A stretch of DNA of 63,815 nt, filler included, from Hausera hauseri (taxonomy: Eukaryota): assembly GCA_046269625.1 (NCBI GenBank). It is 11 parts of 11 records of this genome, joined end to end, with 100 filler letters (N's around TTAATTAATTAA, not from the genome) between each part and the next. Parts side by side here need not be neighbours in the genome. Positions count along the whole stretch, not along the records: positions 10,958 to 15,910 come from JBJURY010380813.1; 10 more parts are not named here. One strand, written 5' to 3'. Position 1 is the first letter of the stretch, and every line of letters starts with the position of its first letter. Under the pieces are notes generated by a model. That model was given only the letters and a program-made list of their open reading frames with translations, made no database searches and had not been told where the DNA came from. Below, one piece after another: positions 9,321-63,815 of this stretch. The position numbers and the translations under genes are program-made.

Positions 9321-9899
9321 GTGATAAAGTTTATTTGAACTTCAAAATGTAATCAATTAATCATTAACAATCAATTCATATTTTGTTATATTTTCATATT
9401 GCTGTCCATATACATATATACACACTAAATTGTATACAACACTAACAACACATGCATTGGTAATTATCATTTCATTCCAAATAAAAGAAACGTACAAAAT
9501 GTTCATGTTTCCCAAAAATATTCCGACAAAAAAAAGTTTGACAACTTTTGTGTCGTATAGTCACATGGTGGGGAAAGTCCTTTCATAGACACGCCAACCA
9601 CTCCAGTGCAACCAGACTAAGCGCTACAACCTCCTCCCGAGGGTAGGGGGTGGGACCGAATGAGTATTTTCCCACTACTATTAGGATAGCCTCAAAGTCT
9701 CAAAATGCAACAATTGGTGCTTTATGCATTTTTCATACTCTAAACTCGATATAATCTTTTTTGGGAAATTCGGTTCTGATACAATGATTGCTGTTGCAAT
9801 ATATCTTGTGTTCTTCGAGCTTCTCCACAGCTGATTCGCCATTGAAATGCGTAAAGCATAGTTTGCAGACCCCAGTTCTTTTGCCATGTTTTGTTCTTT

Positions 9900-10700
9900 G
9901 GAATCTCACCAGACGTTCAAAGTTCTTGATCCAGATAAAATCTCTTCACCATCATCTAACATGACCAGATCCCTATGGTCCGCTAATTCAGTTTTGTACA
10001 CATGTAAAGGATAGAATTTATCCGTTTCATTCAATCCAGATATTGATGGGCATCTGGTTTACTTGCTCAAATCTTTCAATTTCATGTATTGTTGGTGGAA
10101 AGTAATACAGCTGAAATCGTAATTATGTTGGATGTTTTGATATAAAGAAGCACGAAAAGCATGAATTTGATCCGTTACGTATTTTGAGAGAATCGCATAC
10201 TTGAAGCACATACTGTCATTATTTTTCACATTGATGCATGCTTCTTTTTGCTCAATCCATCGTTGAAGCTTTATATAAGAGCTTCCTCTCATCGGAGAGT
10301 ACTTGTGTACATGAATGATCAATCGTTTCATAGTTGCAAGAATCCACCCGCTTTTCTTATCCTGGCTCTCCTAAGCTTCACGTATGAGTTTGCATGTTCC
10401 TCATGTCGAAATTCTGATATATATTTCTGGCTTTCAATATTGGTTTGTTTTACGTTTTGGAAGCCCTATTTGATTCAACAACATTTCTCAACATTGGTGA
10501 AAGTGGCCTCTAATATTAGATTGATTTTGATGGACTTAGACTCAATCAAATTATCTTGTAGAATTCCAGCATTTTCATTCTTTTAATAATCCAGGAAGTC
10601 ATGGAGTGTAGTTTTTCCCATCCCAAGTCTGAGATCTCGCCTCATTTTCGTTCCGAATGCATGATTCTCTGGATTTCTTATCCTTCGGCCTTTGGATGGG
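9900..10700 (-). pseudogene. N-terminal fragment of a Polinton/adintovirus-type protein-primed PolB
   Basis: KYSPMRGSSYIKL..WI..KEACINVKNNDSMCFKYAILS aligns with the PolB N-terminus in C5 (24559-24801). Confidence 0.75.
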
Positions 10701-10957
10701 ACATTTGGATTGTCTGCCACCTGCTTTAATCCGGTATGAACAACTGGTTGCACTGATGTTATTACAGGATTGGATACACTACCTTATGTTCATTAAAAAT
10801 CATCTTTGACTTGGTTGTGAAACCACACCAATGAGCTTTATGATCATAAAACTGCTGNNNNNNNNNNNNNNNNNNNNNNNNNNNNNNNNNNNNNNNNNNN
10901 NTTAATTAATTAANNNNNNNNNNNNNNNNNNNNNNNNNNNNNNNNNNNNNNNNNNNN

Positions 10958-12700
10958 GTACCGTAAATATTGTCCGTAAGGCGCTAATAATAAAATATAT
11001 AGCTAGAAAACCGGAAGCTGCTTGGCCAAAATATAAGACCTTTCCCCACATCTTCTCCATAATATTTCTTCTTACTTTCCTTAGATAATCCTTGTCCATT
11101 AGATTTTCCCATTGTTGTGATTCTTCACCATCCCACATGACTCTCCGGGTTAGTTCTGTTATAACTCGTTGTCTTTGTTGTGGGAATAACAACATTTGTC
11201 GATAATATTCTAGATTTTGTTGTGTGTAAATTCCTCCATGTGATATTCCTGTTAATGGTTGAAATTTCTGATTCCTTTGCAAATTAATCAAACTCAAAGT
11301 CTTCGGTTTGGGCACTGATTCTCTTTTTGGCATTCTAATCCATTTATCGTTGTCGATCTTAAACATTGGCGACATATTAAAAGTGCAATTGTATAGTGGA
11401 GTATGATTTACATTAATATCTAATAGTATCCTCGTTACTAGCATCACATCTCGATTCTGTATGATAAACTACAGGTAATTCCATTGTACATTCGTTCGTT
11501 GGCCTGACTGATACTTCTACCTTTTTGCATTCTATTGTTATCAGTACCTCGCCCATCACTCTTCCGATAATTTCGTCGCCAACAGGCATTACTGGCGCTA
11601 CCATGCCTGGATTTGTTATTACCAATGCCACTTTATTACGCATTATTTCATAGTTTAGTTTACATTCATTCATTATTATTTCTCTATATAAACATATAAT
11701 TTCTTTCCTTACATAATTGATTAGAAAATCGATCTTGTTATCGAAATATTGCTTCAGCTTTATATCTTTCTTATCTGTTTTGGTTTTCGCCCCGGGTATC
11801 TCTTTTCTCGATAAGAAAATATCCTTATAGTTGGTTTTTGATATTTTTTCGGTACACTTATTTGTTACTCCAGTAATTTTGGATTGCATCATTTCTTCTG
11901 GGTTTTCCAAATAAACAATTGCAGCCACTTCCGTCATCTTAACTTTTTTTATTCCTTCTTTATATGTCTTTGTCTCTTTCTCCGCCGCTTTTCATACTGT
12001 TTTATTAAACTTTCCTTCTTTTAACAGCATCAACTGACATTTACTTGCAGAGGTTTCCCATGCCATTTTCGACTCTTCAGTATCACATTCGCCATTATAA
12101 TATTCACATTCACTCATAGTCGTCATCAATTTCGTTTGAGTCGAATAATCCTTCATATTCTTTCAAATGGATCTGATAGTCTTCTATGGCTACCGTTCTA
12201 GGTGCAATGGAACCTCCAACATCGTAGTCCACTCATTTACAGATGTCTTCCATTGTTTATCCATTCTTCCTTCCCTAAAAATTCTGGTATATTTTATTCT
12301 GTTTCGAACTGCCGCTATATGCGCGATTTGTATAGTTATGATACCAATCTTAAAAACATCCTGACATGCTGCTTGTGATATTATTATCGGTTAGAAAAGT
12401 GTGGGCTCAATTATGGCCGAATTTCTAGAGTAATAGCAACAATTAAGAAGGAAAAATGATCTCTTTACATAACATTCCCTGATTTTCGCCTTTATAAATT
12501 CGGATTCTTGGTATACCCAGTATGTAAGAACACTTGTCGTTGTTAACTGTTCTGGGTCGGCTTCTGGACACTTCTCTAAATCAACTAGAGAGTACTTTTA
12601 TCCTTCGCTAGGTTTAGAGCAACCATAAGCCACTATACCCACGGCTTTTGTCATTAATAATGACGTTATTAAGAGAATCTGAAGAATCTCCATTATTGAC
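10958..12700 (-). pseudogene. env: Chuvirus-like (class III/gB-type) envelope glycoprotein, degenerate, truncated at the contig end
   Basis: Signal peptide (ILQILLITSLLMTKAVG) followed by IVAYGCS (AYDC-like). Also GEVLITIECKKVEVSVRPTNECTMELPV, GGIYTQQNLEYYRQMLLFP and a C-terminal TM segment (FGQAASGFLAIYFII). These match chuvirus G motifs as I recall them. Confidence 0.8.
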
Positions 12701-12989
12701 ATACTTGTTATGCCTGGTCTAGAGGTGTTTGGTTGTGTCGCGGTTGGCGTATCTGTTACTCTTTCTCGTTCTTCTGACCTTACTATATTGGTCATTAAGC
12801 TGGTCAGCCATCCACCTCTACATTGAACCCAATTTCCTAACGTATCTTTTAAAATCTTGACGGCTGTCTTTATATTTCGCTCGATTTCTTCCAAATTTTG
12901 AGTCCGGTGATTATTTACTATTATTTTATATAGCAGATAAGATATAGCCGTTTGAGCTTTCTCTCGCGTAATTCCAGTTGCGAAGATTT

Positions 12990-14120
12990 TTATAAAATAT
13001 CTAGTTTATGCAATTCATTTATCCGTTTTTCGTCTAGATTCTCATAGAACTGTCTACTTATTCGTAACAAACTATTGATTAATGCTGCAATTAATTCGTC
13101 TGAAATTATTACCTGCATATCGGATGAGGCAAATGACGTATGATACTTAGCCAATAAAGTTCTTAGTAATGGATCTGTGTCCACCGATTTGGGGATACCA
13201 TTTCTTCCTGCTAATAATAAACGTCTTACTATTTCTTCGTTTCTGTCTTTTTTGTTACAAATATTGCTTATTTTTGTTCCTTTTGGCCTAACTCTTTTGT
13301 TGGCTTCTGTCTGAACTGTGACGTCTTATGAATCACCTGTAGGAATTTCTTATACTCCGTGTGGTTCCATTTCCCTTAAAATATTCTACACCGTTGCCTG
13401 TGCTCTTGCCTCTGGATGTATTTTGGTTATAATTGTCGGATCATAGTTCTCACTTCTACATCCAATTCTCAATAATTTATCGTAGTTATATAACGTCCTT
13501 CCATAGTAATTTAATCCACAAGGATTCCCTTGGTAAAAAGGCTCTAATTCCTCAATCTTTTCTCTTAAAGTTTGCATGTCGTCTGTTTCGTTCATCCTAA
13601 TGACCATCATATCTTGGTTTCCTTACATTACCGCTATCCGTATGACTTCATTTCTTCCTTTCTTATCTTCGACAGCTTTGGCCAGTACTGTTCTGGCTAT
13701 TTCTCTTACAAGACTGTTATTTTTGGCTAATAATACTAATTGAGGTAAGATTTCGTTCATCCTTTCTAACGTCACTTTATTGGTAATTATCTACAGTGTC
13801 GTGGTAGTCGTTTTGTCTACATCAGTTATATTATCGGGATCGACAGTCATTACTACCTGAATGATATTGTTTTCCTCGTCTAAATCTACAACTGGATTCC
13901 TTATTACTTGATCTAATGTAGCTTCATCAAATATTAATGTAGCTTGAGTTTCATCTTTATCAAATAAAGGTATACTAAGGTTACTTTTCTTTCTTCCTCT
14001 TTTCTTTTCCTTTACTACGTCTTTCCTCTTTGTTGATGTTTCTCTTGATCTAACCCCTACGTCAGTTATTTTCTTACTGCCTTTTTTTCTTCCTTTATGC
14101 GATGCTTTTTTCTCCAATTA
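12990..14120 (-). pseudogene. Accessory ORF between gag and env: Lys-rich segment, ubiquitin-like domain (about 13400-13650), helical segment
   Basis: VIRIAVM*GNQDMMVIRMNETDDMQTLREKIEEL...LNYYGRTLYNYDKLLRIG follows the beta-grasp pattern and is homologous to 29398-29730. Confidence 0.55.
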
Positions 14121-14379
14121 ATGTCCTATCATATAGATATTATTCTCTTTCAGTCTTTGCTGCTGTTTTCTATAATCTTTTATTTCTATTTCAAATTGCT
14201 TCTTCATACGTCGAGATAACGTATCATTTATATAGTGAACACTTTCTTTCTTTTTATCCTTTTTCGTAACTTTGTGTTCAGTAGCACTATCATCTGTTTC
14301 GTATTTTTGTTAGATAATTCTTCTGACGCAGCTAATGTGTAATCTTTCTTTTGTTTATTCTTATTACTTGATTTCGAGA

Positions 14380-15200
14380 TGTCTCCTCTACGTGATCTAC
14401 ATGATTACGCTATATAGATGTATTTATTGCAATTAAAACATTTCAAACTTCATTCGGAATCTATATGAGGTAATGTTCTTCCACCCTTCTTAGATTGCTT
14501 CTTATAACTTGCCTTCTCTCTATCATTCCGGAAATTAAATCTTACTTTCTTTTCTGCGTCTGACTCAGCTTCTGTGGCTGACGTCTGTGAAGGACTTTTA
14601 TTTCTTTCATAATGTTGATATTTTTGAGTACTATTGTTTCTTATTTTTATCGTAGCCATTACATTTAGGCTTATACCACATATATAGTTCCGCATCTCGT
14701 TCGGCTTTTTCCGCCTTTCTTATTGCCTCTTGAAACATAGGTGGGTCTGCTTGTGAAATTATTGTCTTTAACCTTTCTTCTAATCCATATTGGAATTGGG
14801 CTAACAATGCATTATTCAGTATCTTAATGTTAGGATATGCTCTCGCTGCGAGCCTCTCTAATGCACAGACAAAGTCCTGGACTGTTTCGTTTTTACGTTG
14901 CCTCCATTTATGAATTCTTCAATTTTCCACTTTCCAGAGGGATTTATTAAAATCTTTCAAGGCAATTTTTCTTTAATTCCTTTCCAGTCCTTCTTGTTCT
15001 CATTTGATATTTGGAAGTATATCACGAGAGCCGTCCCTTTTACATGAAGGGGTAATCTTTCAACTCTTGTTTATTATCCCATCTAAACCTTTGGAATATA
15101 CTTCATATTCCATCATAAAATCCTATATGTCTTCCTTACCTGGAAATTTTTTTATTTGTAGGCTGAAATCAGCCTTCTACTAAATTACCTGTTCTACTTT
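14380..15200 (-). pseudogene. gag: Ty3/Gypsy-type gag, degenerate
   Basis: Hand translation gives RLPLHVKGTAL, WKGIKEK, RQRKNETVQDFV and LAQFQYGL, plus a decayed CCHC knuckle CFNCNKYIYIA*SCR near 14395-14440. Confidence 0.75.
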
Positions 15201-16783
15201 ATGATTTGCTATTGGTTCGTTCTCACTTAGGTTTTTTAAATATTCTAGTCCGAAGGGCTCGTTTTCCTCTGGTTGATAAATTGATCTTTTTTTGTGGTAA
15301 TGTTGATACTTTTATAAAGGTCTGGAAATAATAATCCCGGGTCACGGCATTAGTTTGTTCAATCCTCACTAATTACTTTCGAAGAGACTTTTACGTAAAT
15401 GATTCATTAATGGGGCAAACAAATATCTTTAACTTTAATCGCTGTGAGAGGGTTTGCAGAGATGTGAGGTGATAGCCTAGTAGGGAGAAAATGGCGGTTC
15501 TAGCCCACCCCGTGGGAGGGGGTAATTGATAAAACGGTTTTGCACATGTCCCGATCGATAGCGTACACTGTGCACTATCGATCCATAAAGTGACTAGCAA
15601 CGGTGCCGCTAGACACCGTTGCTAAGGGCACTTTTTCCCTTTTCACTTATCGATCGCTGCGCAGTGCAGTATTAATCGAATCGGTCAGAACAAAGTGCTA
15701 ATCGATAGAGCACATCAAGGCGCTTCGACTGGTGCACAGTGCAAGTGTGCAAAAATCAATAATATCGAATTTCCGATAAATCCAATATGGCTGATTAGCA
15801 TTTGCAACCGGGTGCAATCGGAAGCAAACATGGTGTAGTATATGAATGTGCAGTTAGAATTTAAATTTATTGATTAGTTATTGATTAATATCGATCGAAA
15901 GTGCAAAATGNNNNNNNNNNNNNNNNNNNNNNNNNNNNNNNNNNNNNNNNNNNNTTAATTAATTAANNNNNNNNNNNNNNNNNNNNNNNNNNNNNNNNNN
16001 NNNNNNNNNNAAACAAACCTTGCTTTATTAATTTTACGGAATTTTCTAATTTGTTTTTGTAATAATTTGATATCCGAAAGAATGCATCACGTCACGTTCT
16101 TTGTCCTTATTGGAAACCACATGCAAATGTACATTAAAATGAAATCTACATATGGGGTACTATACATACAATAAGAACTGTAAAACAGATGCTGCATACA
16201 GGGGTAACACATGCAAAAAGTGCTGTAAAACAGAAGAAAAGTAGGGGAATTTATAAACTCAAGAAGCTTTTAATATTATATAATAAGAATTGAGTAAATC
16301 CATGCTTTGGGAATATGCTGGGCACACGACTGCTTGGATAATTTAAAAAATTTACACAATTTCAGTTACTAAGTATAATATATGAGTATATTTAATAATT
16401 AAATCAACATTGCCCCGTTAGTTATAAAAATATAATAAAAAAAGGAAGTACACTTACTTTTTTGCATATCCTTCTCCATCTTTCAGTGATTTCTAAAATT
16501 GAATAAATGCTTGTCATTTACCAACTATATAGGCAAATTACTTTGATAACTTGTCTAAATCAAAAATTTTTTTCTTAAAAGTAAATTTTACACCAATAAA
16601 CTTCAATGGAATATGCTGGAATAGTTTCATATTCAAGGACTCATGATTATTTATTTTTAACTTTGTTAATTTAATTCAATAATATCGAATATTATTTGCA
16701 TATTACCCTTCAACTGAAAATGTCATTTACTATTGAATTAATAACCTTTTGATTGAACAAATTACCACGTTTGAACTATTAGG

Positions 16784-21877: not shown

Positions 21878-24800
21878 CTACAATGCTACATGTCCATGAG
21901 GTAGTGTGTGGATTCCATCACTCAGGATCTGCCTCTTGTCGTCCATCCAATTCAGGCTTTTCTTATTCAGAGTTACTGTTTGTATGTTAAGATCCCTAGA
22001 CTGGATCCTTCGCATCTCTGATATAATATGAGTCTGCTCATGCAGAACTGTCACATAGTTCTGAAAACTGATCTTTTTGGCCAATGTAGCCCATTGAACG
22101 CCCTTGGCTCTCTTTTTGATCTGACCACATACGTCTAGGGCATACATTTTTTACCTGAGAGCCACAAATCTCAAGTTGATTGCTCCATTCACCTCGTCTT
22201 TGAATTTCCCAAGGACCTTTTTGTTGGGATGATCCTTTGGATAGTCCGAGGTATCCATGTGTTGAGCCAACTGGGCAAAGTTCTTATAAATGTCCTCTGT
22301 ATGCATGGACTTGAACTTGGGGACCATAATGTCGTAGTGGAAATTATACATTAGGGTCTTTGACAGCTCGAGGATTGCCATACCCACATATATGGGCTTG
22401 TTGAATAACAGTGCTGTTTTCAGCATATAGATGCCTACAAAGTTCTTAGCATATATAGTGCTGCTGTGAAAGTTAGGTTTGGCAATAAACTTCTTTGCCC
22501 GCTTTCAATCACATACTAGCTCAATTTTGATCCTGTTGCGGATATTTTCCGTGGTCTTGCCAAAAACCGAGTTGTTGTAAAGCTTGAACTGGTCTTTCTC
22601 AAAGTCGTTCTTTGCATTAGTCCGCAGCTTCGTATTGAGATCGATGTATGACTGCAGCCACATGGACTGGCTAAACTGGAGGGCTCTATGGATCTTGGTA
22701 ATACAAAGTCCATGTCTAACTGCCTGATGGAGATTGATGTAGTGGACTACATACCTCTCCCTAATACCCAAATGACAGAGCAGCTTTCTATGCTTTCCAT
22801 AAGGCGGAGGCCTGCTCTCAAGGAGGAAAGGCAGCTGTTGATGACTTGCGCGGATGGAAGCCGGATATTCCATATCCACCTCCATTATGTAACCCGTATC
22901 TCCAATGGGATCCAGGTCCAATATGGGCATATTTTCAAGATTGTTGACCCATTTGACGTTATCATATGGCAATGGGACGCTCATTGCCCCATCCATACAA
23001 GCTGTTGGCATCTAGGTATGATATATATGAGGATTCCTTGGATAGATCATAATCTGTCATGAATTTGTTGTTGGCCTTGATATACCGGTAAATGGCCTGG
23101 CATATTCCACCTCTAATGCCTCCCTCGATCATAAGGATCATGTCATAATCCTTAATAATCGGCAACCTTATGCCGGTATAGCGCAGCATTGCTGCCCAAC
23201 TCATCCTTGGAGCCGTAAAAAAATGAGCCCGATCCAATGCATGGCTCTTCATTGTACCATCCCTGAAGCTCTCCAAGACGTCCATCAGCAGCAGCACGTC
23301 CGTCTTGGGGTATATGTCGCTGTATTCCCTTATTGTTCGGCATTGGAATGCATGGCACACGTTTTTGGCAAGCTGGTAGTCAGCATCACTGATATCACAG
23401 TCAGAGAGGATACTGTAAAAGTCCTTCTTGTCCGGCAATGAGGTCCCATCCAGTGTTTTCCATGAAGTTATGTAGTTATAGGGAAACACGTCTTTACTCT
23501 TGACGAAGTCAAATGCAGTGGGGAAGAACCGCTTCGTCTCCTTGAGTTCTTCTGCAGGGAGGTTCTTCACTAAACTGTCCAGTGAATACGACATGAAACG
23601 AAAGCTGTATATGAAGCGAAACCTGATTTTGCCCACATGCTTGGTAAAGGTGATGTATTTTTCCTCACTGTTGGGGATCACATCAATGTTTCCGTCAATG
23701 CTGCCCAGTTCCCGAATAATGAAGTAGAAATCATAACCACTGAGGTTGTGAAATACTACAGGCACATATGTACATTTTTTGCAGCGAAGATTGCAGTTGT
23801 TGCATGCTGCCCATCGATATGTACCTGTAATATGGCAATGATCCTTGACTTTATGATTTTCCTTGGTGAAAGACTTGTCGCACAAGTAACATGTTGTTGC
23901 CTTGGGCCATTCTTTTGTTTGTTTCTACGACATGCTCATTGTATCTTTATGTTGCTGAAGCATGTTTTCAAGCTTATGAGCCATATATTCAAGTCGTTTC
24001 ATGAAATGTGCTGCTGCACTCGGACCCCTGAATAGAAATGCTTCACTGTCCAGTCCTTTGGCATGCATGCAATACAATGACAGTTCATGATATTGGTATG
24101 CCGTTGTGCTGCTATGTTGGGGACTGGGAGTGCAGCTGTGAACTGGCCTGAAAATAGCTTCAAAGTCGCAATAGACGACAATTGGGACCTTGAGATTCTT
24201 CTCAAACTCCTTGAATTCAATGTAATCCTCCTTGGGAAATTCTGGCCTGATACAGTAATTGTTGTTGCAGTACATATTGTGCTCTGCAAGCTTGTCCACA
24301 ACTGAATCACCACTGAAATGGGAAAAGCATCGTTTGCATATTTCGATTCTTGTTGTGTGTTTCGTAATTTGAGGTCTGACTAGACGTTCAAAGTTCTTTA
24401 TCCATATGCAATGTTTCTTTTCACCATCGTCTAGTAGGAGCAGATCCATATGATCTTCCGATTCAGTATCATATATCTGCAGGGGATAAAATTTATCCTC
24501 CTCATCCAATCCAGTGATGTTGATGGATATGTTGTTGATTCGGCTGAACTTCTTAATTTCATCTAAGGATGGATGGAATGTGATACAATGGGAAGTCATA
24601 GTTGTGTTGCACATTTTTATACAGCCAAACTCGTAAAGCATTATGTTGATCCCGTATGAGTTTTGATAGAATGGCATACATGAAACACATGTTGTCATCA
24701 GTAAAGACATTGATGCATCCTTTTTTATTAGCGATCCAATCAGGGAGATGAATATAGGAACTGTCCTGCATTGGAGAGTACTTGTGCACATACACAAGCA

Positions 24801-25271
24801 ATCTCTTGATGGTTGCTAGAGTCCATCCACTCTTCTTATCCGGAATCTCATCGGCTACACGGATCAGCTTCTCATGCTCTTCATGCAGCCATTCTACTAT
24901 ATTGGTGGCTTCAAAAAGGGTCTATTTCTGGTCTTGAAGGCCCTTTTGGACTCTTCTACATCAACATTGATGTATGTGGCCTCAAGTTTCATATTAGCCT
25001 TAATGGCCTTCAGCTCAGCTATGTTGTTCTGAAGAAACCCCTCTGTCTCGTTCTTTGTGTACTCCAGGAACTCCTTGATGGTTGATTGACCAGTTTCACC
25101 AATGACATATTTGCGGCATTTCCTCTTTAATGCTGCAGCATAACCAGGCCGCTGTCTTTGACTCTTTGATGGAGCCGTTCCGCCTGATGCTGCTGCGTAT
25201 GATGTGGCTGCTCGTTTCAATTCTCTAATATGCTTCGCAGCTGCTGCACCAGATCCAGCAGCATAATGCAA
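21878..25271 (-). pseudogene. polB: Protein-primed family B DNA polymerase with an endonuclease VII-like insert (Polinton/Maverick, beta-adintovirus type), frameshifted
   Basis: ExoI VYCDFE; EndoVII KVKDHCHITG..R.AACNNCN; ExoII FHNLSGYD; motif A YLDANSLYG; motif B KLYNNSVFGKT; PIYVGMAILELSK; LGKFKDE; DDKR. The DTDS motif is deleted. Confidence 0.92.
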
Positions 25272-26126: not shown

Positions 26127-26739
26127 TGACGATCATAGTAGTGAGAGTTGTACTCGAAACAATATACGGTTTCCTCATAGTGGTTGGAAACGGAAGCTTC
26201 CATACTCCCATTTTTGGACGGTATTCCCTTAAATAAGCGCTTCGTTCTCCGGGGTACGTATTGGACAAATTAAGTTGTAACTGATACTCTTGTCCTAATT
26301 GTAATTCACAGCACACTGTAGGTTTTCGTCGGGCAAAATAGCAATATTCTGAATTAGGAATCGAGACATTCAGTGGTATAAATCGTACAGAAATTTGTTT
26401 GTCTCCTGGCAGTTCCACCTTGGTTTTAACCCGAATACATCGGTGCTCTAAGTCCTTGTAGATCCCAATAATTTTATTGTGTAAGAGTCTTTTAAATGGA
26501 TCAGTATTCCAGTTTATCTCATCTGTTTTGCCTCGATTCGTGTCATTTCGCTGAGGCATTCTTATTAAGAATTCCGTGATTCTATAGGCTCGGGCTCCTA
26601 GCTGATTATGATAAAACATTTGAAATCTGTACTGGTAGATCTGTCCAAAGTCCAAATCGCAACATGTCTTGTGAATTCCGTACGGAAGATCGCATGTTCT
26701 CATCGTGGATCTAGATACAAATATTATTTGAAATATCAC
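26127..26739 (-). CDS. Orphan ORF downstream of integrase (env position), 'QLGARAYR' domain; runs off the contig
   Basis: Open frame of more than 200 codons after the integrase C-terminus. Shares motifs with 61700-61980. Confidence 0.5.
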
Positions 26740-26958
26740 ATGGCTCTGAATAGGTTCACTTGTTTCAAACCACGCACATGGTTTGCTCTAATCCATATCG
26801 TACACTCTAAGTGATATCATGTTTTGGACATCCCTTCGTCTTGCTGCATATTGTAGTTTTTCGGTTGGACTTATTGATTTTGCCTTTGGAATGTACGAAG
26901 CGATTAACGACAAAGCGCGGATTATTTGCGCATACGACATCGGTTTGGCCGTTATGGA

Positions 26959-29320
26959 CTATGTTTTCTTTTCTCTGTTGGTATGTTCCGATTTTGCTGT
27001 GCTAGAACGCATATAGTAGCGTTTGGTTGGTCTTATTCCGGTTTTTACTACTCTCCGGACCGATGTGACCTCCTCGCCGTTTTTATTTATGTAAACCGTG
27101 GTTGGCGTAGTTTTGGTAACTTCATAAGGCCTTCTGCATGTTCTGGTGAGTTTGAGAGATGTGCCTTTCTTGACCACTGGATAGTGTACGTAAACCCAGT
27201 TTCCTGGTTATAGGTCGTATGGTTTAGCCTTCTTGTCATACTGCTTCTTGAATTGTTCATGACATTCTCTACATAATTCCTTGGATATTTTCCAACACTT
27301 GTGTAATCTCAAATGCAGTATCTCGACAAAATTTTGTTCCTAATTTTCCATTCTTGTGCATGGGATCAATCCTAAATCTGTGGGCAATAGTGCCTCTCTA
27401 TCATACATCATGAAAAACGGGGTAAATCCCGTCGCATGTTGTGGGGTAGTATTAATAGCAAATTGTGTACCTTCTAAGAACTCGTCCCAATCTTTCTGGT
27501 CTTTTGCGACTACTGTCAATAAGATTCTTATAACTGTCGCTTTCATCCATTCAACCATTCCATTACATTGTGGGTGATACGCCGTGGTAGTTAGCCGTTC
27601 AATTTTGAAAATTTTGGTAATTTTGTCAAACAGTTCGCTTGTAAAGTTTCTCCCTCGGTCTGTTAGAATTTTTCGGGCGGTCCGTATCTGCAAATAATCT
27701 TCCGGACTACTACTTCTGCCAGAGTATCTGCCTTTTGGTCTATTAACTCTATAAGTTCGACGAAGTGAGTTAATCAATCTACACATGTTAAAATATATTT
27801 GTTGTTTTTGTGGGTCGTAGGTAATAGTCCTACGATATCCATGGACATTGCCTGCATCGGTCTATCCGGCACGCTGATGGGTGTGAGTTCGGCGATGTAG
27901 TTTTCACTTTTCTTTGTTTGGTTGCACATACCTCGCAAGCGTTCACCCAATTCCTCACATCAATGTAAACGCTCGGCCAATAATATTTATTTAAGATTCT
28001 TTCCAAGGTATTTTTCCACATGTGTCCGGTTAAATACGAATCATGCTCGGCCACCAGTACCTCTGTACGCAATCCCTTCGGTATGACTACCAATTTTCGT
28101 CCTTTTCGTTCGTAGTACAACACACTTTCATGGTTTAAGTCTCCTGTGAAATGGTATTTGTGGCCATATCTTCGTAAGTGTTTCCGTAACTGTTGACAAT
28201 TTGGTGTTTTTTTAGTATCAACGAACTCGATAATTTGTTGTATAACTCTGTCGTTTCTATGTTCGACTGAAATTTTTAACGCCTTATCTAACGTAAGGGT
28301 CCGCTGTCTTTCTANNNNNNNNNNTACCTTAGCCGCGCTAACTTTTGTCTTAAGTCTTGATAGTGCATTGTCATGGACATGTTTATTTTCAGGTTTGTAT
28401 TGAAATAAGAAATTATATCGTGAGATTTCATCGATCCATCTGTTAAGTCTACAGGTTGGATTATTTGTCCTACCCTTTAAGGTAGTAACTGCCTTATGAT
28501 CGGTAAAGATCACAGTCCTTTGTCTATATACGTACACGTTAAAATGTCGTAGTGCTTCTTTCATCGCTAGCGTTTCTAACTCCGTAACGGAATAGTTCTT
28601 CTCTGCTTTCTTTAAGGAACGTCCCACATATGCAATCGAATATTCCAGCTCCTCGTCGTCTTGTATTTGGGCCAGTTCATATCCGATATCTTCCTTATTG
28701 GCGTCCGTTTTGATTATAAATGGTAGGTTGAAGTCGGGATATCTTAAAACGGGTTCACTAGTTAGAATCTTTTTCATTTCATCGAAAGCTTTCTGTTCGA
28801 CATCGGTCCATTTCCATTTGATCCCTTCTTTTACTAAAGGATATAAAGGTGCGTTTATCTTTGCGTTATCTGGTATGTAAGTAGCATAATACACACATAA
28901 TCCTAACCAGTGTCTTAATTCCTTCTGATTCTGAGGTTTCATGCAGTCCGATATCTTACTTAATAGTGGTTTATCCGGCTTCGACCCTCCCTGTCCAACT
29001 ATATGTCCAAGGTACGACATAGCATTTTGAGCCCATTTTCACTTCTTGGGATTCAGTTTTAGTCCAGCTTGCTCCAGTCTCATAAGTGTACCTTCAATAT
29101 CCTTTAAATGATCCTCTTCCGTTTTTGATGCAATCATGACAAAGTCCAAATAGACAAATGCGTGCTCCAGTCCCATTAGTATCTTGTTCATCATGCGAGT
29201 AAAAATGGCCGGTCCGGTAGTTATCCCAAATGGCTTACCATTAATTTCGTATATACCATAGTGTGTCTTAAATGCCGTTTTATAACGATCTTTCTTTTCT
29301 ATCTCTACTTGCCAATTTTT
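26959..29320 (-). pseudogene. pol: Decayed Ty3/Gypsy pol (partial RT, RNase H, integrase with GPY/F tail)
   Basis: DRYKTAFKTHYGIYE, FVYLD, KTDAN, NYSVTELETLA, TDHKA, HDSYLTGH..CEVC, TDRGRNF and TTAYHPQCNGMVE. Confidence 0.9.
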
Positions 29321-29397: not shown

Positions 29398-29730
29398 CTA
29401 CCACTGCTCTGCTTTAGCCTTCCTTCTAGCCTCCTGCTTTGTTTCCTCGATAGAAATGGTTACCGCTGCCCGATTTGCTTTACGTGGAATAATTCCGACT
29501 TCTATTAATAGTTCCGATTCATTTAATATCCTTCCTCTAAAATAAAATCTATAGCTCGGCTCATGGGCGTATCCATTGTTCTTTATTGACAGTAATACAT
29601 CCCTTACAAGGGAGCGCGTAGTGAACTCATGTTCCTTAGCGTCCATCTAGTCAGGTACTATCCTTACTGGAATAGTCTCCTCTGCCTTTGCCTTTAAGAT
29701 TTTGGCATATTCTTTAAGTAAAGCTTAGGT
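29398..29730 (-). pseudogene. Ubiquitin-like domain immediately upstream of RT
   Basis: TIPVRIVPD*MDAKEHEFTTRSLVRDVLLSIK...YRFYFRGRILNESELLIEVGI, compared with ubiquitin [21 protein letters not shown]. Confidence 0.6.
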
Positions 29731-31360: not shown

Positions 31361-34300
31361 TTATGACGGAACGACGAACTTCTCCGGTGGACGAACACAA
31401 CGTCCAGAGCGTGTAAACGTCGACTTCTCGGTCTGTGCCGATGGCGCTTCTGTCGCTTGAGGCACTGCATGGATGATATATGCGGGTTTTACCCGATCCT
31501 TTGATACAGTTTTTGATTTCCCACCGACATCCAAAATGACTGTTTTCTCGCAGCGCTTCTTTATTCGATATGGACCATCGTATTGAGGCTGCAGCGCACG
31601 ACGTACCGCATCATGCCTTAAAAATACATGCGTACATGTCTGAAGGTCCTTTGGAACATAGACATCAGGCATAGAATGACGTGATGCTGGACATGGTCGA
31701 CTTTCCCGAATTTTCCGCTTAAGTTGCTGTAAAAAAGTAGGCAAGAAAACAGGTTCCTTTATTTCGGAGTAAAAATCCGCTGGGAGCCGTATGGTTTCCC
31801 CGAAAACTAATTCTGCAGCAGAAGAATTTAAGTCTTCCCGCCAAGCACTGCGGATACCCAAAAGTACTGCAGGCAAGGCATCGACCCAGGATGAATTTGC
31901 ATGGCACATAATGGCTTGTTTCAGAGGCCTATGAAGCCGCTCGATCATCCCGTTACTTTTCGGGTTATACGGGGATGTCCTTTGTATCTGTATCCCAAAT
32001 AAAGTAGCAAAAGAGCGAAACAGGGCAGACTCGAATTGCCTGCCTTGGTCACTTGTCAGCTTAGCCGGGGTTCCATAACGAGCGATCCATTGTGAATAAA
32101 CCACCCGTGCAACCGCCTCAGCTGTTATATCTGCTATTGGGATAACCTCTGGCCAACGTGTATAGCGATCAATTATAGTAACGCAATGTGTATACCCCTG
32201 GCACACAGGTAACGGACCAATTAAATCAATATGAATGTGTTTAAAACGTCCCGTCGGAAGTACAAAATCACCGCACGGCGTTCGTGTATGCCGATGAACT
32301 TTCGTTCGTTGGCACTCGATACATGCACGTGCCCAATTTTTTATATCTTTGTTCATACCGGGCCAGACATACTTGTCGGCCACTAATTTACCGGTAGTTC
32401 TGATACCCGGATGAGCTAAGTTATGGAACGCCTCAAAAACCTTTTTCCTAAATCTTAATGGAACTAGCGGTCGAACCTGTTGAGTAGAAGCATCACTATA
32501 CAACAAAACATCGGTCTCCGGAACAGCAAATTGCTTAATCACAAAAGAATTTTTTATTTTACCGGCCACTATATCTTGAATTTCGGTATCCTCCGTTTGT
32601 GCGAGGGCTAATGCCTGCCAGTCAATCTGGGATGGAATTGTAATCTCTTCCAACCTAGATAAAGCATCTGCAATGGCATTCTGATCACCTGAAACGTACC
32701 GGATATCTGTAGAAAACTGCGAAATAAATTGCAATTGTCTAAGGCGCCTAGGTGGTGCCTTTGAGTCATTTTTTTGTAAAAACGAAAACGTAAGAGGCTT
32801 GTGATCAGTATAAATGCTAAATGGCCTCGCTTCGAGCATAAACCGAAAGTGAACTATAGCAGAATAAATGGCAAGTAACTCGCGATCATAAACTGAGTAA
32901 TTCTGTTGTGTCCGCGTCAATTTCCTGGAAAAGAATCCAAGGGGTTTTAAACCTCGCTCTTCCTTTTCATGAAGCGCAGCCCCCATAGCTAAATCGCTGC
33001 AATCAGTATATAATGCTAAGTGTGCATTTACTGAAGGATAGTGCAGCAAAGTTGCTTTAGCTAACGCCTGCTTTGTGGCCCGAAAGGCTTCCTTCGCTTC
33101 TTCCGTCCAGGAAATTTCCGTATTTTTATTTCGTTTCTTTGACCCCTGAAGATATGCATTTAATGGTATTTGTTTTTGTGCAAGGTGCGGTATAAATGAA
33201 TGATAAAAATTAACCATACCCAGAAATTGTCGCAAATTCCGGACGGTTTTAGGTAGAGGGTAATTCTGAATCGCCTGTACACGCTTTTCCAATGGCCGAA
33301 ATCCAGCCTGGCTAATCGCGTGGCCTAAAAACTCTACCTCCTGCACACCTAGTATACATTTAGAGGTATTAACTTTTATTCCGTATTCTCGGAACCTCGA
33401 AAAGATTACCTGCAGGTGTTGCATATGTTCCGTCTCATTTTGACTAGCAACCAACACGTCGTCGATATAGGCGAAACAAAATGACAATCCCCTTAGTACT
33501 TCATCTATAAAGCGCTGGAATGTTTGCGCTGCACCGCAAAGTCCAAAGCTCATAAACTTAAATTCATATAACCCAAAGGGCGTAATTATGGCTGTCTTAC
33601 ATCTATCTTCGGGGTTTACAGGTATTTGGTGATAAGCCCTTAACAAATCGATCTTAGAAAATATTCGAGTACCATGCAATTGCTGAGAAAAATCTTTCAA
33701 AAATGGCAAGGGATATTTATCAGGAACCGTAATCTTGTTTAATTGCCGATAGTCTCCCGTTGGCCTCCATTCACCCGATGCTTTCGGGACCATATGGAGA
33801 GGACTAGCCCAGTTGCTGCGTGATGGTATGCAAATCCCATTATCCAGCATATATTTAAACTCGGCCTTAGCGACCTTAAGCTGGGCAGGGTGCAATCTAC
33901 GCGCACGAGCCTGAACGGGAGGACCTTTCGTATTGATAAAATGCATTGTGTTATGTTTTACAGCCTCTGTCGATAAAAATCCCGGCTGTGTTATCTCCTT
34001 AAAATTGTCAAGAATCTGAAGAAATTGTGCTGTACCCTGTATACTTTTGATGTTCGGCATATCACATCTCAATATGTACCCTTTGTATGCACGAGATTCA
34101 TTGGGATCAGTTAACACTCTTTGTTTTATATCAATAATCAAACCAAAGTGTTGTATAAAATCCGCTCCTATAATCGGTTTAGATATATCAGCAATTATAA
34201 ATGTCCATCTATATCGCCGATCTCCCCCCAAATTCAAAGTAAATTCCTTCGTGCCGTAAGTACATATATTGGAGCCATTTGCAGCCGCCAGAGTGAAGTC

Positions 34301-35269
34301 AGTTTTCCTTTTACCTCTGACATGCCTAGCCGGAAAACAGCTCACATCACTCCCTGTATCAATAAGGTATTGTGTACCGGTACCTCTATCACTAATGAAG
34401 AGTCTTTGCCCCGTGGCATCTATCGCATTTAATTTTAACGGATCAGAAACTTTCTTTTTCTTTTTGTCATCGGCTGTGTAACTACATGGTTTAATACATT
34501 TTGTGGCTTTCTCGCCGTAGGAACGATGATACCAACAAAATCCGGCTTGGGATGTAGAACTACATGTTCTATCCGCCTTATGCCTTGTGGGTCCAGTTCG
34601 CTCCCTATATGAAGTCTTTGGGTATGTATTTTGCCTGTCATACAGCCTATTGACTTTAGAAGTTAAAGTTCTAATTTGAGATTCTAATTTTTTTAATCCA
34701 TTGGTATTGTCAGTCTGTGCAACAGCTGCCACGGTTGTCTGCGTACCTACACCCGCGATTTTATCGGCTATTTGTGCAAGCTCTGTTAAATCTAGTGGGC
34801 TTGCTGCCAAAATCGCTTGCATATTTTGTGGGAGGTGAGTCATCCAGAGGCATTTCAGGAATTCTTCGTCCAGCTTGTTGCTTCCCAACTCACGCATCTC
34901 CAGGAGAAGCTCTGAGGGTTTTTTATCACCCAGTACCAACTCCTTTAAGAGCATATGTACTTTTTCGGGTTTGGACGGCTCATACTGTTTTAACAAACGG
35001 CCTTTTAAAGTAGTATATGGTTCCTTTGCATGCGGAGTATAAACCACGTCGGAAACGTATTTTAAATGTTCCGCTCCCACTGCTGCTACCAAATAACTAA
35101 ACTTAGTACGCTCAGTGGTTACCTCAGCTATTTCAAAATTGGCTTCAATCTGGGCAAAAAAAAGCCGAATGTGTGCCGTTGAAAACTGCGGAATTTTCAT
35201 TCCAATCCTATTTACTGTTTCCCTGGGTTCCATCCCGCTAAGTGACAAAGTGACCAAAATGCAAAGCAA
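31361..35269 (-). CDS. gag-pol: Intact single-ORF Gag-Pol of a CsRn1-like Ty3/Gypsy retrotransposon (likely ATG at 35233)
   Basis: 1302 aa uninterrupted. CHCC knuckle [18 protein letters not shown], protease LIDTGS, RT YIDD, RNase H TDCS/ELLAI/TDHKPL/ADALSR, integrase HHCC + D,D35E, and a GPY motif. Confidence 0.97.
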
Positions 35270-35480
35270 AACGACTTACCCGTTCCTCCAGTTCAGTATC
35301 CAGTTACAGTTCTGTGCTGGCGAGGCTACTCACTCCCAGCTACAGTCAAAGCACTCCTCATTCCAAACTCCAAAGCGTAGCTTCTTCCTTCTTGAAACTT
35401 GTACAGGTCGCATATCAATTTTACCGACATCTGTTCGCAACTCCGGTCGTCCAAAAAGAAAACTTAGTCCAGACGATATC

Positions 35481-57615: not shown

Positions 57616-59849
57616 TTATATCCCCGACTGAGGGGGTCATGTCTTGTTTCCCATTGGTCTATTTTCCTATCCCACTATGACTCATCCGGCAAAGAAAATT
57701 TTTTTCCCAGTGGAGGGGGTCTTCGAGATAGGAAATTTATATTGGGGCCGTTCGCTCCCTTCTATCTACTTGTGGTCAATTCGAACCGAAGTCTTACGTG
57801 GCCTTTGTTTTCGTTTAACATTTTTATGAGTGTCAAACTCTTTACATGTCATACATCACATTTCACATATCATATTCCATGCTATATTCTAAATTTCATA
57901 CATAATATTGCGTATTTCATCTTGTTTTCACATATCTGACGTCATACCGGTTTGCCCATATATAGTTGCCTATGTCTACGCTTAAAGATTTTAACATTTT
58001 TGTATTATTATTCTTGAAAATCACAGTTTATTATTATACACAAGCAAGTACGGTTGAATTATATATAAATAATTTAATGGACAGCGGTGTACTGCACCGC
58101 ACCAAATTTAAAATTTCAACAAGGTTTTCATATATGCTGAATAAAATGAAGCAGCCAAAAATTTCGAATAATTTAGAATTGATCGATTTTTCGAGTCCGA
58201 ATCGATAAATAATCAATTTTGAATAATGTATTTGAATATCTGACATCGGATTCGGATTCCGCATATATTGTTTCCTATCTATCTAAGTTAAAAGATTATT
58301 CGATTTTCAACATTTAAATTCAAATTTATCGATTTTTATACTTTTTGAATAATGAAAACCTTCTTCAAACGATTATATCTCGGCACCAATTCAACTTATA
58401 GAAATGGCCAGTACCTCATTTTACGCATCTTGAAGTGCTTAATGCGGCAAGATTGGTGTCGATCGCTTTCCGATAAAAAATGATAAAATCGATATTAAGC
58501 CTCCGATCGATGAGACCTATATCAACCAATGGGATAATTAATTCTCATTTATATGCACTTAATCGCATTAAATTACCTTTAGTCAGTTCAGGAATATATC
58601 GATTTTACGTTATTACACACAATAACGAAAATCTCTGGATGCATACAACATTTCGGGGTGATTTTTGGCTTAAATAACAGCTGTTGACTGGAGGTACACA
58701 ATAAAATGAAAAATATAGGAAAAATCGATTTTTATCGAAAAAATTGGAAACCGGTAATGTCGATTTCGCTCGATAGAGGACATTTTCCTGTATCCGACAA
58801 ACTTTATTTCACTTCAGTACGACGTATGGTTGCCGAAATACAGCCTTTCGAAAATTTTATTCAAAATATTCGAATCGTTATAGATTTGGTTGCTAAGGTT
58901 GTATGGACTTGTAACCTATACCTTTCGATAGAGCTTAAAAATGTCACCACTTTTGACTTTCCGACCAAAATTATTCGAAAACACGGTAAAAAGATAATCA
59001 AATTTGAAAAAAGTTTTTCGAAAAATTTGTCCCACCTATACCATGTTGTATAAAATTCAAAAATACACAGTTTTTAATTTTTCGAAAATTTTTGAAATTT
59101 TGCACCGAATTCGAATAGTGCAGCACACTCTCGAAGTGTTAAAATCGGTAGTGCACTGTGGGAGGGGGTAATCTCACTTCGTAAGAAAAATTTAAAAAAT
59201 TTATAAAATTAAAAAAAAATGATTATTGTATATTAATTATCAATCCTGAGGGTCTGATCTCACTTCGTAAAAAAATGAGAACAAAAAAAATTTTGGCGCA
59301 AAGTGCAAATTTTTAAGTGCACCTACAAACCATGCAGTACGCATGCTTGTGTGTATCACTTTCATAACTGTCTTCTATCTACGCCCTATTAATCGTACGT
59401 GTGTGTATTACTTTTTTCTATCCCATGACTCATCCGCGAACCACATAATTTTTTTCACTGCGGGGGGATGGCGTCATGTGCTCCTTTCCATCTACTCACT
59501 AACGCAAATTAATGATGTATTTATTTTGCTGTTGTCTCTTTTGGCTAATATTAACGAGTTTTTGTAATTAACTCACAGCTACTGATGTCGACTGTTCCAA
59601 ATAATGGACAATAAATATCAATATGTTAGTAAACTAGATTTTTATACAATGCTTATGTTTTCAGTTATATATTATATACAAATTATTCCAGCACGCTACA
59701 TATAGACTTTTTACATGGGTATGGTCTTTTTATAACATCTTTCCTCCTTGAACGTCATCTTCAGATGAGTCTATTGCGTTAGAAGAGGTGACGTCGAGGT
59801 CCGGTTTTCTTAGTAGATTCAACATTCTATGTAAACTAGTGTCTGAATC

Positions 59850-60518
59850 TTATGCTTCTATTGTCCATCTGTAGTGGGTATTTTCCTCCAATCGATATCT
59901 GATATTTAGCCGGATTTCTACGACCCGATTCTTTTCTCTGTTAGAATAATATTTTATTTTCATGGCCTCCGCTCTGCATACTGGGTACATGGTCTTGCCA
60001 TTCCCTAAGGCCCATGCTTCGAGACAGTTCCGATAATATTTATATTTACATTTTTTATTATCCAGCATGACATAATCTTGTTTGAGACTATCGTCGCATA
60101 CGAGACAAGTGATTTCTTCTTCCTCGTCGTCTCTGTCAAAATCTACGTTAATAATATATTCTATTTGCTCGAACAATAGACCATCCTGATCTTGATGTAA
60201 ATAACCAGTGTTAATTGAGTTTTTCTTTGAGTAGTTCACGGAAACTAGCGCCCAATCGTGGATAACCTGTCCATCTAAATTCGGGATCTGGGCGTTGCTT
60301 TGATATCTTTAATGTTGTTTTTTTATTTGTATTTGAACTTGGATATATACTACCAGCGTTAATTTTTGCGTTCTTGATCGGAAAATTGGGGTCAGATATC
60401 GTCCGATTTTTGGATTTTCCCGTATATATGTGTTCTCGTATGCCTCTCGAGTTTCTTCCCTTTTAATGTAGAATACTGCATCTTTTATTTTCTTATGGCT
60501 GCAGTATTGTGCCATCAA
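59850..60518 (-). pseudogene. ORF with a decayed RING-H2 finger (59973-60107)
   Basis: CLVC-x15-CKYKYYRNC-LEAW-x8-YPVCR. The three missing ligands are Tyr codons one transition away from His or Cys. Confidence 0.65.
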
Positions 60519-60964: not shown

Positions 60965-63532
60965 TTACCTGGAAACGACTTTCTTCAGTGGTTTGGACGA
61001 TTCGTACTGAGATCTGTAGTGTTTATGACGTCTCGAACTTAAGTTTTCCGGATTCATAGGGCTTTGAAAGTTTTGTTTTGAGTTATCTGGCGGCCATTTG
61101 TGGTCCCGTTTCAAGGACATATAGATGTCATGTAGATATTGCTTACGCTGACTAGCTGACAGAAGTGTGGTGATTTTTAAATGCTTCCCGCTCATCGCTT
61201 CAAGTATTAACTTAAATAGTGCTTCAGTTTTCATTGGTAGCGAACTATTCATTTCCTGCAGTATTCTTTTGAGTTCTTCCACCATTGTGAGGTATATCTC
61301 TATCTCTCTCATTCCAAAGATATGGGAAGTAGGCACATCGAGTTTTCTAGTGTCTCCTGGATTTTATATCCAACCAAGATGAATCCGTAGAAACAGTGTT
61401 TGATTTCGGCGCTGACTAATTCACTGTTCTTGCCGTGTCCTAAATGCTCCTTCTCTATTCCTGTTAGTTTGGAAAATGTTTCCCTGATCCTTTTTAGAGG
61501 GGCAACGATTTTGGAGTAGATTTCGGCTCCGTGCATTTCCCTAATTTAAACTTCTATCGAAACATAATTTCCGTCATCCCCTACTCCGTAGTGCAAGGCT
61601 ATAATTCTCTCATTTCGTCCGTCTTGAACTAATCCCTATGATTGTAGATGTTCTTCTTGATTCTTTTCTGTTGGGCTTTGTCGCAACGTTATAGATGGAA
61701 GCTGTATGTACGGCCCATCTTCGTAGGTGACTTCCATCATAATTATGACAGATAGAGCTGTAATTCTAAATTTCAACTCGTATTCTCCCAGGTTTCCAGT
61801 GCATAGCTAAAGGGTGTTAAATCTGAATTATCTCCCTTTGTTTGCGTCCCAGTTTTGTCATGATATCTAATAATATAGTTCACCTTCAACTAGGTGTATG
61901 AAAATGCTTTGGTTATACATGGGCTCGTACGTGATTAGGCCCTTTAATCTATACGCCCGGGCACCGAATTGCTTCTCATTACATAGAGTCGCACAACGCG
62001 ATCTTCTTCGGTGGTGCTTTTAAGATTATTTGGGATCCTGCTGGTCTGATTAAATTCTACGATTATTTTCTCATACAACTCTGTATTAATTTGGCCGTAA
62101 ATTGACTTGGATACTCACTGATACTGTGTCCTCTTCGATTTCCGTTTTGCATCGTCATGATGGTACCTACCACTTTAAAAATAAACAAATAAATGTTAAT
62201 TCTAAAACGAAGTATTGTTTTAAACCAAAACCAATTCTTTATTTCGTAATGGAATAACTCGATCTGTAACTGCCAAGTTATTTCACCAAAGGTTTCGTCT
62301 CAGGGCGTTGTTACCCTTAATTCCCTTTCTTTGATTTTATGACTCTTGGACCGTCAATTTTTGATAAGTAATCGAAAAATCGCGACTAATATTATGAGAA
62401 CAAACGTTGATAGTCCAATAACTGATAAAATTGGCAAAGTCGTTAATCCAGTCGGTTTTTTTGTAGTGGTTGGTGTTGTTAACTCGTTATCTGCTTCATT
62501 GTCTAAGTACGGCTTTGCATGGACTTCATCTAATATACGTAAGGCGAACGTCTGGTTTTGTGTATTCTGTGCATGTACTTGTATTATATAATCTGACCGT
62601 GGTTCAGTGAATTACATTCTGTTTGATAAATATTTTTAAATAATGTCACAAATTTGTTATTATACAGTTTTCGGCAGCTTAGATGGATGTCGTAATTTAC
62701 TTTTATTTAATAGGTATACTCTCTAATCCTTTTTGGGTGTTCCATCTGAAGTGATTGATTCACTAACGGTAGTCATCCGAGTGGTCGGCTTCTTTTGTTG
62801 TCGTTTCGAGTGGAATTTTCCATATCCCAGTTAGTTCTTTGTTCGGGTTCCATATAAATCGAATTGTATTCTGTATTCGTGCCACAATGCAATTTTACAG
62901 CAAGGGTTAGCTTTATCCGTCCAATATAAAAGTATTTTTCTGACAGGGCTAACTTTTATATCGGAATTAGTCGAATGGACACATTTGGATACATTTGTTC
63001 TTTACGTTTTTCGGAATCCCCATTATGTTATTATCCAAAACCCGTCTATACGGATGGGCAATACGAATGATATCGTTAAGTTTTGCTTGATTAGTTTCGT
63101 TCCACTTCGACATGACTATTTTAAGTTGTGGAAATATGTAGGCTTGAGTTCTATGAAAATGGTAGTAGAACATTTAAAGGTTATATCCGTAAATCCGTCA
63201 AAATTCTAGTTCACAACATTTTCGTCGGGCCCATAGTGAATATCCTAGTTTCTCATCATTTTGCTGGTTTTGTCTATAAATCATATCTGAAATTTTACAT
63301 GACTTCTAACAGGACTACCTGCCTTAAACGAGGAACAAAGTAATTTTCAATCCATGTCGTAGACTCTTAATGATTTTAAATTCAATATATCTTTACATCT
63401 TTCTGAATGTTGCCATCTCTTAATAGAAGGGTTGTCATCCTTGTTTTTCGGAAGATAAGAAGCGATTAATGATAGTACCAAAGTTATCTGTACATATGAT
63501 ACTGGTCTGGCAATTATAGAGGAAGTTTTCAT
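60965..63532 (-). pseudogene. Long decayed accessory/env-position ORF of an LTR retroelement
   Basis: Preceded by the integrase-tail-like KRYNLRPK (about 63560-63585). Hydrophobic leader ITLVLSLIASYL. QFGARAYRL motif shared with 26127-26739. Confidence 0.45.
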
Positions 63533-63815
63533 AATTTTCCCATTCTGGTTTCTGTTCTTCGGCCGTAAATTATAACGTTTAAAATGGTTTTATTTCCGTT
63601 TTGACGACTATAGCAATAATTTACTCTCAAAGTTTAATTGAAATTTTTACGAGTAAAGTATAACGTTCTAGTTAGGCATTTTGTGCTTAGTTTATAAACT
63701 ATACTTGTACTATATGCGATTTTATGCAAGAGGTTAAAAATTCTCGTCCTAACTGTAAATTTTACACTTTATTTTAACACTTAATGTGGTACAAATCCCC
63801 CTTAATGGGCGATGA

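Follow-up and report, generated by a model that had tools for sequence, protein, structure and literature searches.

A 4,953-base contig of Hausera hauseri carries what is very probably the decayed 5' part of a multicopy Ty3/Gypsy LTR element, likely one of the flatworm Burro/Smed_errantivirus type in which the envelope gene precedes pol (GAG-ENV-POL), with pol itself probably lying just off the contig. The contig (positions 10958-15910) belongs to a stretch of 63,815 nucleotides, here called the window, that consists of unlinked contigs joined with N spacers, and the element described here lies on the minus strand of this one contig. Read along that strand, a tRNA-His primer site is followed by gag with the relic of a CCHC knuckle, then by a linker rich in Lys, a weakly supported ubiquitin-like (UBL) region and a glycoprotein; a likely Bcl-2-like region directly before the signal stretch was absent from the earlier annotation. 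Several of the assignments listed below draw on a homolog, the 1,130-residue ENA protein P0001.

15356..15546, minus strand: possible 5' LTR, its 3' part or the whole, placed by its distance of 3 nt from the primer site, on the upstream side, with provisional bounds.
15341..15352, minus strand: tRNA-His(GUG) primer-binding site, agreeing at 10 of 12 positions with the His_GUG 12-mer of PMC13524379, supplement 1.
14688..15180, minus strand: Gag capsid of Ty3/Gypsy (Arc-like) type, broken, from identity to P0001 and a dArc2 profile match.
14399..14440, minus strand: relic of a single CCHC zinc knuckle, with the His position changed and one stop.
13890..14309, minus strand: coiled, Lys/Arg-rich linker, from its sequence, with a similar basic linker at the equivalent place in P0001.
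13640..13889, minus strand: short helical domain, aligning to P0001 aa 378-465.
13390..13640, minus strand: likely ubiquitin-like domain (weak), from P0001 homology and a place that agrees with the Ubi2/SUMO-like domain of Burro.
12808..13100, minus strand: likely Bcl-2-like domain, interrupted near 12990 by a frameshift, from sub-threshold profile matches.
12620..12711, minus strand: internal signal-peptide-like hydrophobic stretch, with Kyte-Doolittle 19-residue windows reaching 2.06.
10958..12630, minus strand: class III (chuvirus/gB-type) envelope glycoprotein (PF24664), broken, its membrane-proximal region truncated where the contig stops.

When the accessory region was compared by phmmer with 1.84 billion representative sequences, a single match was returned, P0001 (E 1e-21), which is encoded on a 4,786-nt contig and is the only member of its 90% cluster. 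This protein is one open frame, uninterrupted by any stop, that runs through Gag, CCHC knuckle, basic linker, UBL-like domain, Bcl-2-like domain, signal and glycoprotein, and it is collinear with the window element at 47% identity in the capsid (P0001 aa 55-182), 29% in the accessory region and 41% over the C-terminal half of the Bcl-2-like region together with the glycoprotein. The single frame and its collinearity with the window therefore indicate one polyprotein gene, rather than nested insertions or a separate accessory ORF. A first reading of the DNA, made from the sequence only, had given the accessory region an ORF of its own, which P0001 contradicts, and had allowed that the parts might prove to be separate nested insertions, which the same parts in one open frame speak against. 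Elsewhere, a word-index protein search among longer proteins gave no match for the accessory region or the glycoprotein, a search of the same kind with P0001 residues 400-1130 returned only P0001 itself among 6,919 candidates, no related loci were found in viral or metagenome contigs, and the ESM Atlas held no usable match.

The gag pieces of the window had no match in a Pfam search. A profile built from P0001 and four window pieces matched the capsid of Drosophila Arc2 (6taq) with E 6.4e-5, which favours Ty3/Gypsy over BEL/Pao, and the CCHC knuckle is intact in P0001 (zf-CCHC, PF00098, E 2.5e-4). No BEL/Pao Gag family in Pfam was matched by either the window pieces or P0001. At the other end of the element, the region 11413-12705, with stops read as X, matched PF24664 (Monjiviricetes_fusion) with E 2e-31 over profile positions 4-411, and two open pieces gave matches of their own (E 6e-22 and 5e-29), the second of which covers positions 420-569. 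The glycoprotein thus spans profile positions 4-569 of 653, the contig ending ~85 residues short of the profile end. In P0001 the glycoprotein matches the same family (E 6e-19), and a signal-like stretch lies at the equivalent place, aa 784. These results uphold a good part of the sequence-only reading: the Gypsy-type Gag with a CCHC relic; the chuvirus-type glycoprotein with a hydrophobic stretch ahead of it, now assigned to a class III fusogen family; and the enveloped Gypsy-type nature of the element. The grouping of Gag with BEL/Pao, which would have refuted that reading, is countered by an Arc/Gypsy-like capsid followed by one knuckle.

A Gypsy/Arc-type capsid with a CCHC knuckle and a tRNA primer site upstream of gag are both features of Ty3/Gypsy elements, and the contig shows the two of them, the knuckle as a relic. 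One further 10/12 match to the His_GUG 12-mer occurs in the 63.8 kb, at 58377. At the two mismatched positions of the primer site, contigs of the same family read otherwise in about 99% of their depth, and the mismatches are therefore private decay of the contig copy. Beyond the primer site, the putative LTR (15356-15546) begins and ends, on the minus strand, with trinucleotides like those of LTRs, and no second copy of it was found in the contig or the window. A segment of very great depth above about 15440-15600 (20- to 100-fold deeper) was considered as a part of the LTR and rejected because depth beside the primer site is not raised.

The contig copy is dead, with 15 stop codons across its six homologous frame pieces (a few of them where the frame is locally shifted) and some eight frameshifts, counted by eye. 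It belongs to a repeat of many copies, since 36,456 of 15.5 million contigs in run X1 and 3,007 of 9.55 million in run X2 map to the element stretch; these family contigs, mostly 80-95% alike, cover 30 of 30 bins. Summed contig depth is no measure of copy number and was not read as one. The longest of the family pieces are ~325 nt, so that none connects gag with env or env with pol.

The accessory domains between Gag and the signal stretch were assigned with less assurance. For the short helical domain, four to five helices are predicted at a pLDDT of 56-64, and a Foldseek search with this low-confidence model gave no significant match at E<=0.001. For the UBL region, P0001 aa 473-522 match the ubiquitin family (PF00240) with E 0.031, below the cut-off, and the window piece found no domain match in profile searches; P0001 is the sole sequence with a UBL match, and the window accessory region is 29% identical to it. 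Two AlphaFold2 models were of low confidence (pLDDT 37.6 and 35.9), the second rendering the UBL region as helices, and both are poor because homologs are lacking. The Lys-rich, ubiquitin-like region of the sequence-only reading survives in its basic linker, and its ubiquitin-like part is a weak call.

For the Bcl-2-like region, the C-terminal half of the window piece matches PF00452 with E 0.001 and TIGR00865 with E 0.024, and P0001 matches PF00452 over profile positions 6-100 with E 0.055. Of the 16 PDB sequences that the window piece reached at E<=10, eight belong to the Bcl-2 family, headed by 5vmn, which is labelled Bak, and a profile was collinear with BOK over 100 positions that include the BH1 and BH2 regions (E 1.8). 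All of these UBL and Bcl-2 matches fall below curated cut-offs, and the P0001 stretch over the Bcl-2-like region, when run by phmmer against the PDB, found no Bcl-2 match, which counts against the call. Confidence in both assignments is raised because the same layout has been published for Burro/GYPSM1, in which Ubi/SUMO-like and BCL2-like domains lie between gag and an in-frame env (PMC6431247). That a ubiquitin fold would be new for such elements is therefore not supported. As in Burro/GYPSM1, the Bcl-2-like region lies directly before env, in frame with it in P0001, by matches that are sub-threshold and concordant. Judged from these matches and the published layout taken together, a UBL identity for the one domain and a Bcl-2-like identity for the other both appear likely.

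Burro/GYPSM1 is a giant Gypsy-like element of planarians with one ORF that reads Gag-CCHC, Ubi2/SUMO-like, BCL2, Env and PR-dUTPase-RT; its ORF1 runs to 4,873-5,140 aa and carries BIR, ankyrin and dUTPase domains, and its env, with matches to mononegavirus fusion proteins, was called gypsy-Env/paramyxovirus-related (PMC6431247). The contig family shares with it Gag-CCHC, a likely BCL2-like domain and an in-frame env, in the same order, and has its weak ubiquitin-like call where Burro carries the Ubi2/SUMO-like domain. It differs in several respects. Burro proper is described with two or three knuckles and a MATH domain, whereas the contig family and P0001 have one knuckle and no MATH match; P0001 is compact, with about 790 aa from its start to env compared with the giant ORF1 of Burro; and the env here belongs to PF24664, of class III, in contrast to the paramyxovirus-related description of the Burro env. 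The element probably represents a compact, decayed family of a published architecture, Burro-like but not Burro proper. The supplement of Grohme 2018, which reportedly gives the domains of Burro-2 to -4, may already cover the compact layout. The figure supplements of PMC13524379 may include it as well.

The closest published envelopes come from another source. Chary and Hayashi (eLife, PMC13524379) describe gB-type env genes in Gypsy elements from many animal groups, with the order GAG-ENV-POL in elements of Nematoda, Bryozoa and Platyhelminthes; among the last, Smed_errantivirus_1-6 have an HSV/gB-type ENV of group C1a. The motif YQES, present in the window and in P0001, has four matches listed in the ENV table of that paper, all four in Smed_errantivirus rows, in a table whose gaps and incomplete cells could hide further matches. 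By eye, P0001 and the window also agree with the six Platyhelminthes_C1a rows in how their cysteines are spaced and in a number of motif blocks, throughout the domain I-II region, and both features are absent from the rows of that table page for nematodes, orthomyxoviruses and rhabdoviruses. The PF24664 match, the motif and this by-eye, motif-level comparison point to an env of the Platyhelminthes C1a gB type, and from this env lineage a flatworm host is likely. The contig element thus resembles Smed_errantivirus in having a gB/chuvirus-type env beside gag with no pol between them, in shared env motifs and in being multicopy. It differs in its tRNA-His site, Smed_errantivirus_1-6 being listed without a primer site (PMC13524379), and in being decayed, with pol not seen; the words 'Bcl' and 'ubiquitin' do not occur in the main text of that paper.

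The sequence-only reading had placed no reverse transcriptase or integrase between gag and the glycoprotein, and this is correct. A tblastn search of the contig with a 1,304-aa intact Gypsy polyprotein from the window gave nothing better than E 4.4, and the same query found pol on other window contigs; as these adjoining contigs are unlinked, none of their pol genes was assigned to the gag-env element. Env therefore follows gag without an intervening pol, as it does in GAG-ENV-POL elements, and the part of the element that starts with gag and closes with env measures about 4.5 kb. Since the contig ends inside env and the relatives carry pol after env, pol probably lies beyond the contig end. 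The spans tabulated for Smed_errantivirus_1-4 are 14.5-14.9 kb, which would correspond to an ORF of 8.5-8.9 kb if 3-kb flanks are included (PMC13524379); set against the 4.5 kb here, such an ORF would leave room for a pol of ~4 kb.

The same observations bear on the proposal, made in the sequence-only reading, that the element is a pol-less, non-autonomous derivative. In that case Gag-UBL-Bcl2-Env would be followed by the 3' LTR and the element copied in trans by a pol-bearing partner, which would agree with the contig having no pol, with the lack of a pol linked to env in any of the sequences (the contig, P0001 and the ~325-nt family pieces), with P0001 ending without pol and with the abundance of the family. 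However, P0001 breaks off within the glycoprotein after 1,130 aa, and the contig likewise ends in env, so that both stop before the place that pol occupies in the relatives; moreover, the closest envelopes come from GAG-ENV-POL elements that were selected for an intact pol (PMC13524379). The claim of a pol-less derivative was accordingly set aside as unlikely. We consider it similarly improbable that the family is a high-copy satellite parasite of GAG-ENV-POL elements that borrows reverse transcriptase and integrase from its partner. Were this true, a Gag-UBL-Bcl2-Env polyprotein would give infectious-style particles together with a BOK-like, membrane-anchored protection of the cell, in a layout conserved across two families that are only 29-47% identical.

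A loss of pol from the contig copy by internal deletion, in what was originally a gag-pol-env errantivirus, is very improbable. Gypsy elements of gag-pol-env order with a chuvirus-like env are known, with 114 arthropod elements described (PMC13524379), yet P0001, at 29-47% identity, passes from gag to env at the same join with its frame open, which makes such a deletion unlikely. Family coverage is also unbroken over the CCHC-linker join, and among the 12 of 515 loose ends listed, none at the join departs into other sequence, the last being a weak point.

The weakest alternatives, that the parts are nested insertions, an Anakin-like BEL/Pao element or a chuvirus EVE in a gag remnant, can draw on a window full of broken mobile elements and on a glycoprotein in the same Pfam family as those of chuviruses, but they are hardly credible, being refuted by the one open frame of P0001 and the collinear parts on one strand unless P0001 is a chimeric assembly, and opposed by the Arc/Gypsy-like capsid with its one knuckle and no BEL/Pao Gag match. 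Anakin, a group of mosquito BEL/Pao elements with a chuvirus glycoprotein (Dezordi 2020, PMC7642597), resembles the contig element in that an LTR element carries a class III glycoprotein of chuvirus-like type. As described there, it carries its env with a Pao Gag and a complete Pao polyprotein, whereas the contig element combines accessory domains with an Arc/Gypsy-like capsid and has its env ahead of any pol; a Pao-type Gag and polyprotein ahead of the glycoprotein were not found. Dezordi 2023 (PMC10084718) reported no Gypsy capture, a result that PMC13524379 supersedes.

If the element is indeed a GAG-ENV-POL element with pol beyond the contig end, its reverse transcription would be primed by tRNA-His, and one long frame would give Gag-UBL-Bcl2-signal-Env-Pol. 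The internal signal peptide may send the ectodomain into the ER and then stay in place, anchoring the C-terminus of Gag-UBL-Bcl2 in the membrane. Host Bcl-2 proteins have a tail-anchored topology, and the Bcl-2 domain of the element would be placed like that of such a protein, with the capsid tied to the Env-bearing membrane. The transmembrane helix of Env would bring the chain back to the cytosol for PR-RT-RH-IN, and capsid, fusogen and enzymes would in this way be produced in a 1:1:1 ratio, all tied to one membrane for budding. For the Bcl-2-like domain, the most likely role would be to damp the death of the producing cell; it may instead act as a membrane scaffold, an alternative that is kept because the Trp-Gly that BOK has in BH1 is missing at the corresponding position. 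The UBL has no C-terminal di-Gly in P0001, and for this reason it would more likely be a binding module than a cleavage tag.

The significance of the contig copy is modest, as it is dead and its architecture is already in print. To that architecture the data add a compact family, a site for priming by tRNA-His and, in P0001, a natural relative without breaks, within a lineage of retroelements that join apparent apoptosis- and ubiquitin-related domains in one frame to a class III fusogen. Experimental tests were asked for in the review of the Burro layout (PMC6431247), and the Bcl-2-like domain of P0001, being small and natural, would be tractable for probing interference of a retrotransposon with the death of host cells. 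Apart from the element described here, the window holds many Gypsy and Polinton-like pieces, broken mobile elements and fragments of animal genes.

In the part of the decayed Gypsy-type element that lies between gag and env, the likely ubiquitin-like domain is preceded by a further domain, whose coordinates are also given on P0001, the natural homolog of the element polyprotein.

13640-13889 (P0001 aa 378-465): conserved domain of 4-5 helices in the predicted model

This helical domain shows the highest prediction quality within the accessory region (pLDDT 56-64), and the fold search gave no more than non-significant matches to alpha-solenoid folds (e.g. CID and VHS). At the end of the same contig, positions 15440-15910 hold a separate, very abundant repeat bearing short inverted repeats, whose summed contig depth, which is not a copy number, is 20- to 100-fold higher than that of the interior of the Gag-Env element.

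Other contigs of the window carry further features.

31361-35275 (-): intact single-ORF Gypsy element, 1,304 aa, with DUF7041 gag, RT, RNase H and integrase
59850-60308: RING-like ORF (PF13639, E 0.0013)

The intact element is flanked on both sides by identical 77-nt repeats at the two ends of its contig and is an insertion of very young age. The contig at 26127-31000 may be another Gypsy laden with accessory domains. Upstream of its RT, 29398-29724 (-) looks ubiquitin-like by eye; a Pfam search gave no ubiquitin match for this stretch. Downstream of its integrase, an unannotated Cys-containing coding region at 26128-27000 (-) was recognized by eye as common to ∼61400-63800 (-), with zero matches in a Pfam search; the latter contig also carries the RING-like ORF and a hydrophobic stretch.

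Decayed Polinton-like DNA polymerase B pieces were likewise seen by eye at 9681-10783 and 22505-24815 (-), and the two are 75% alike across 199 nt.
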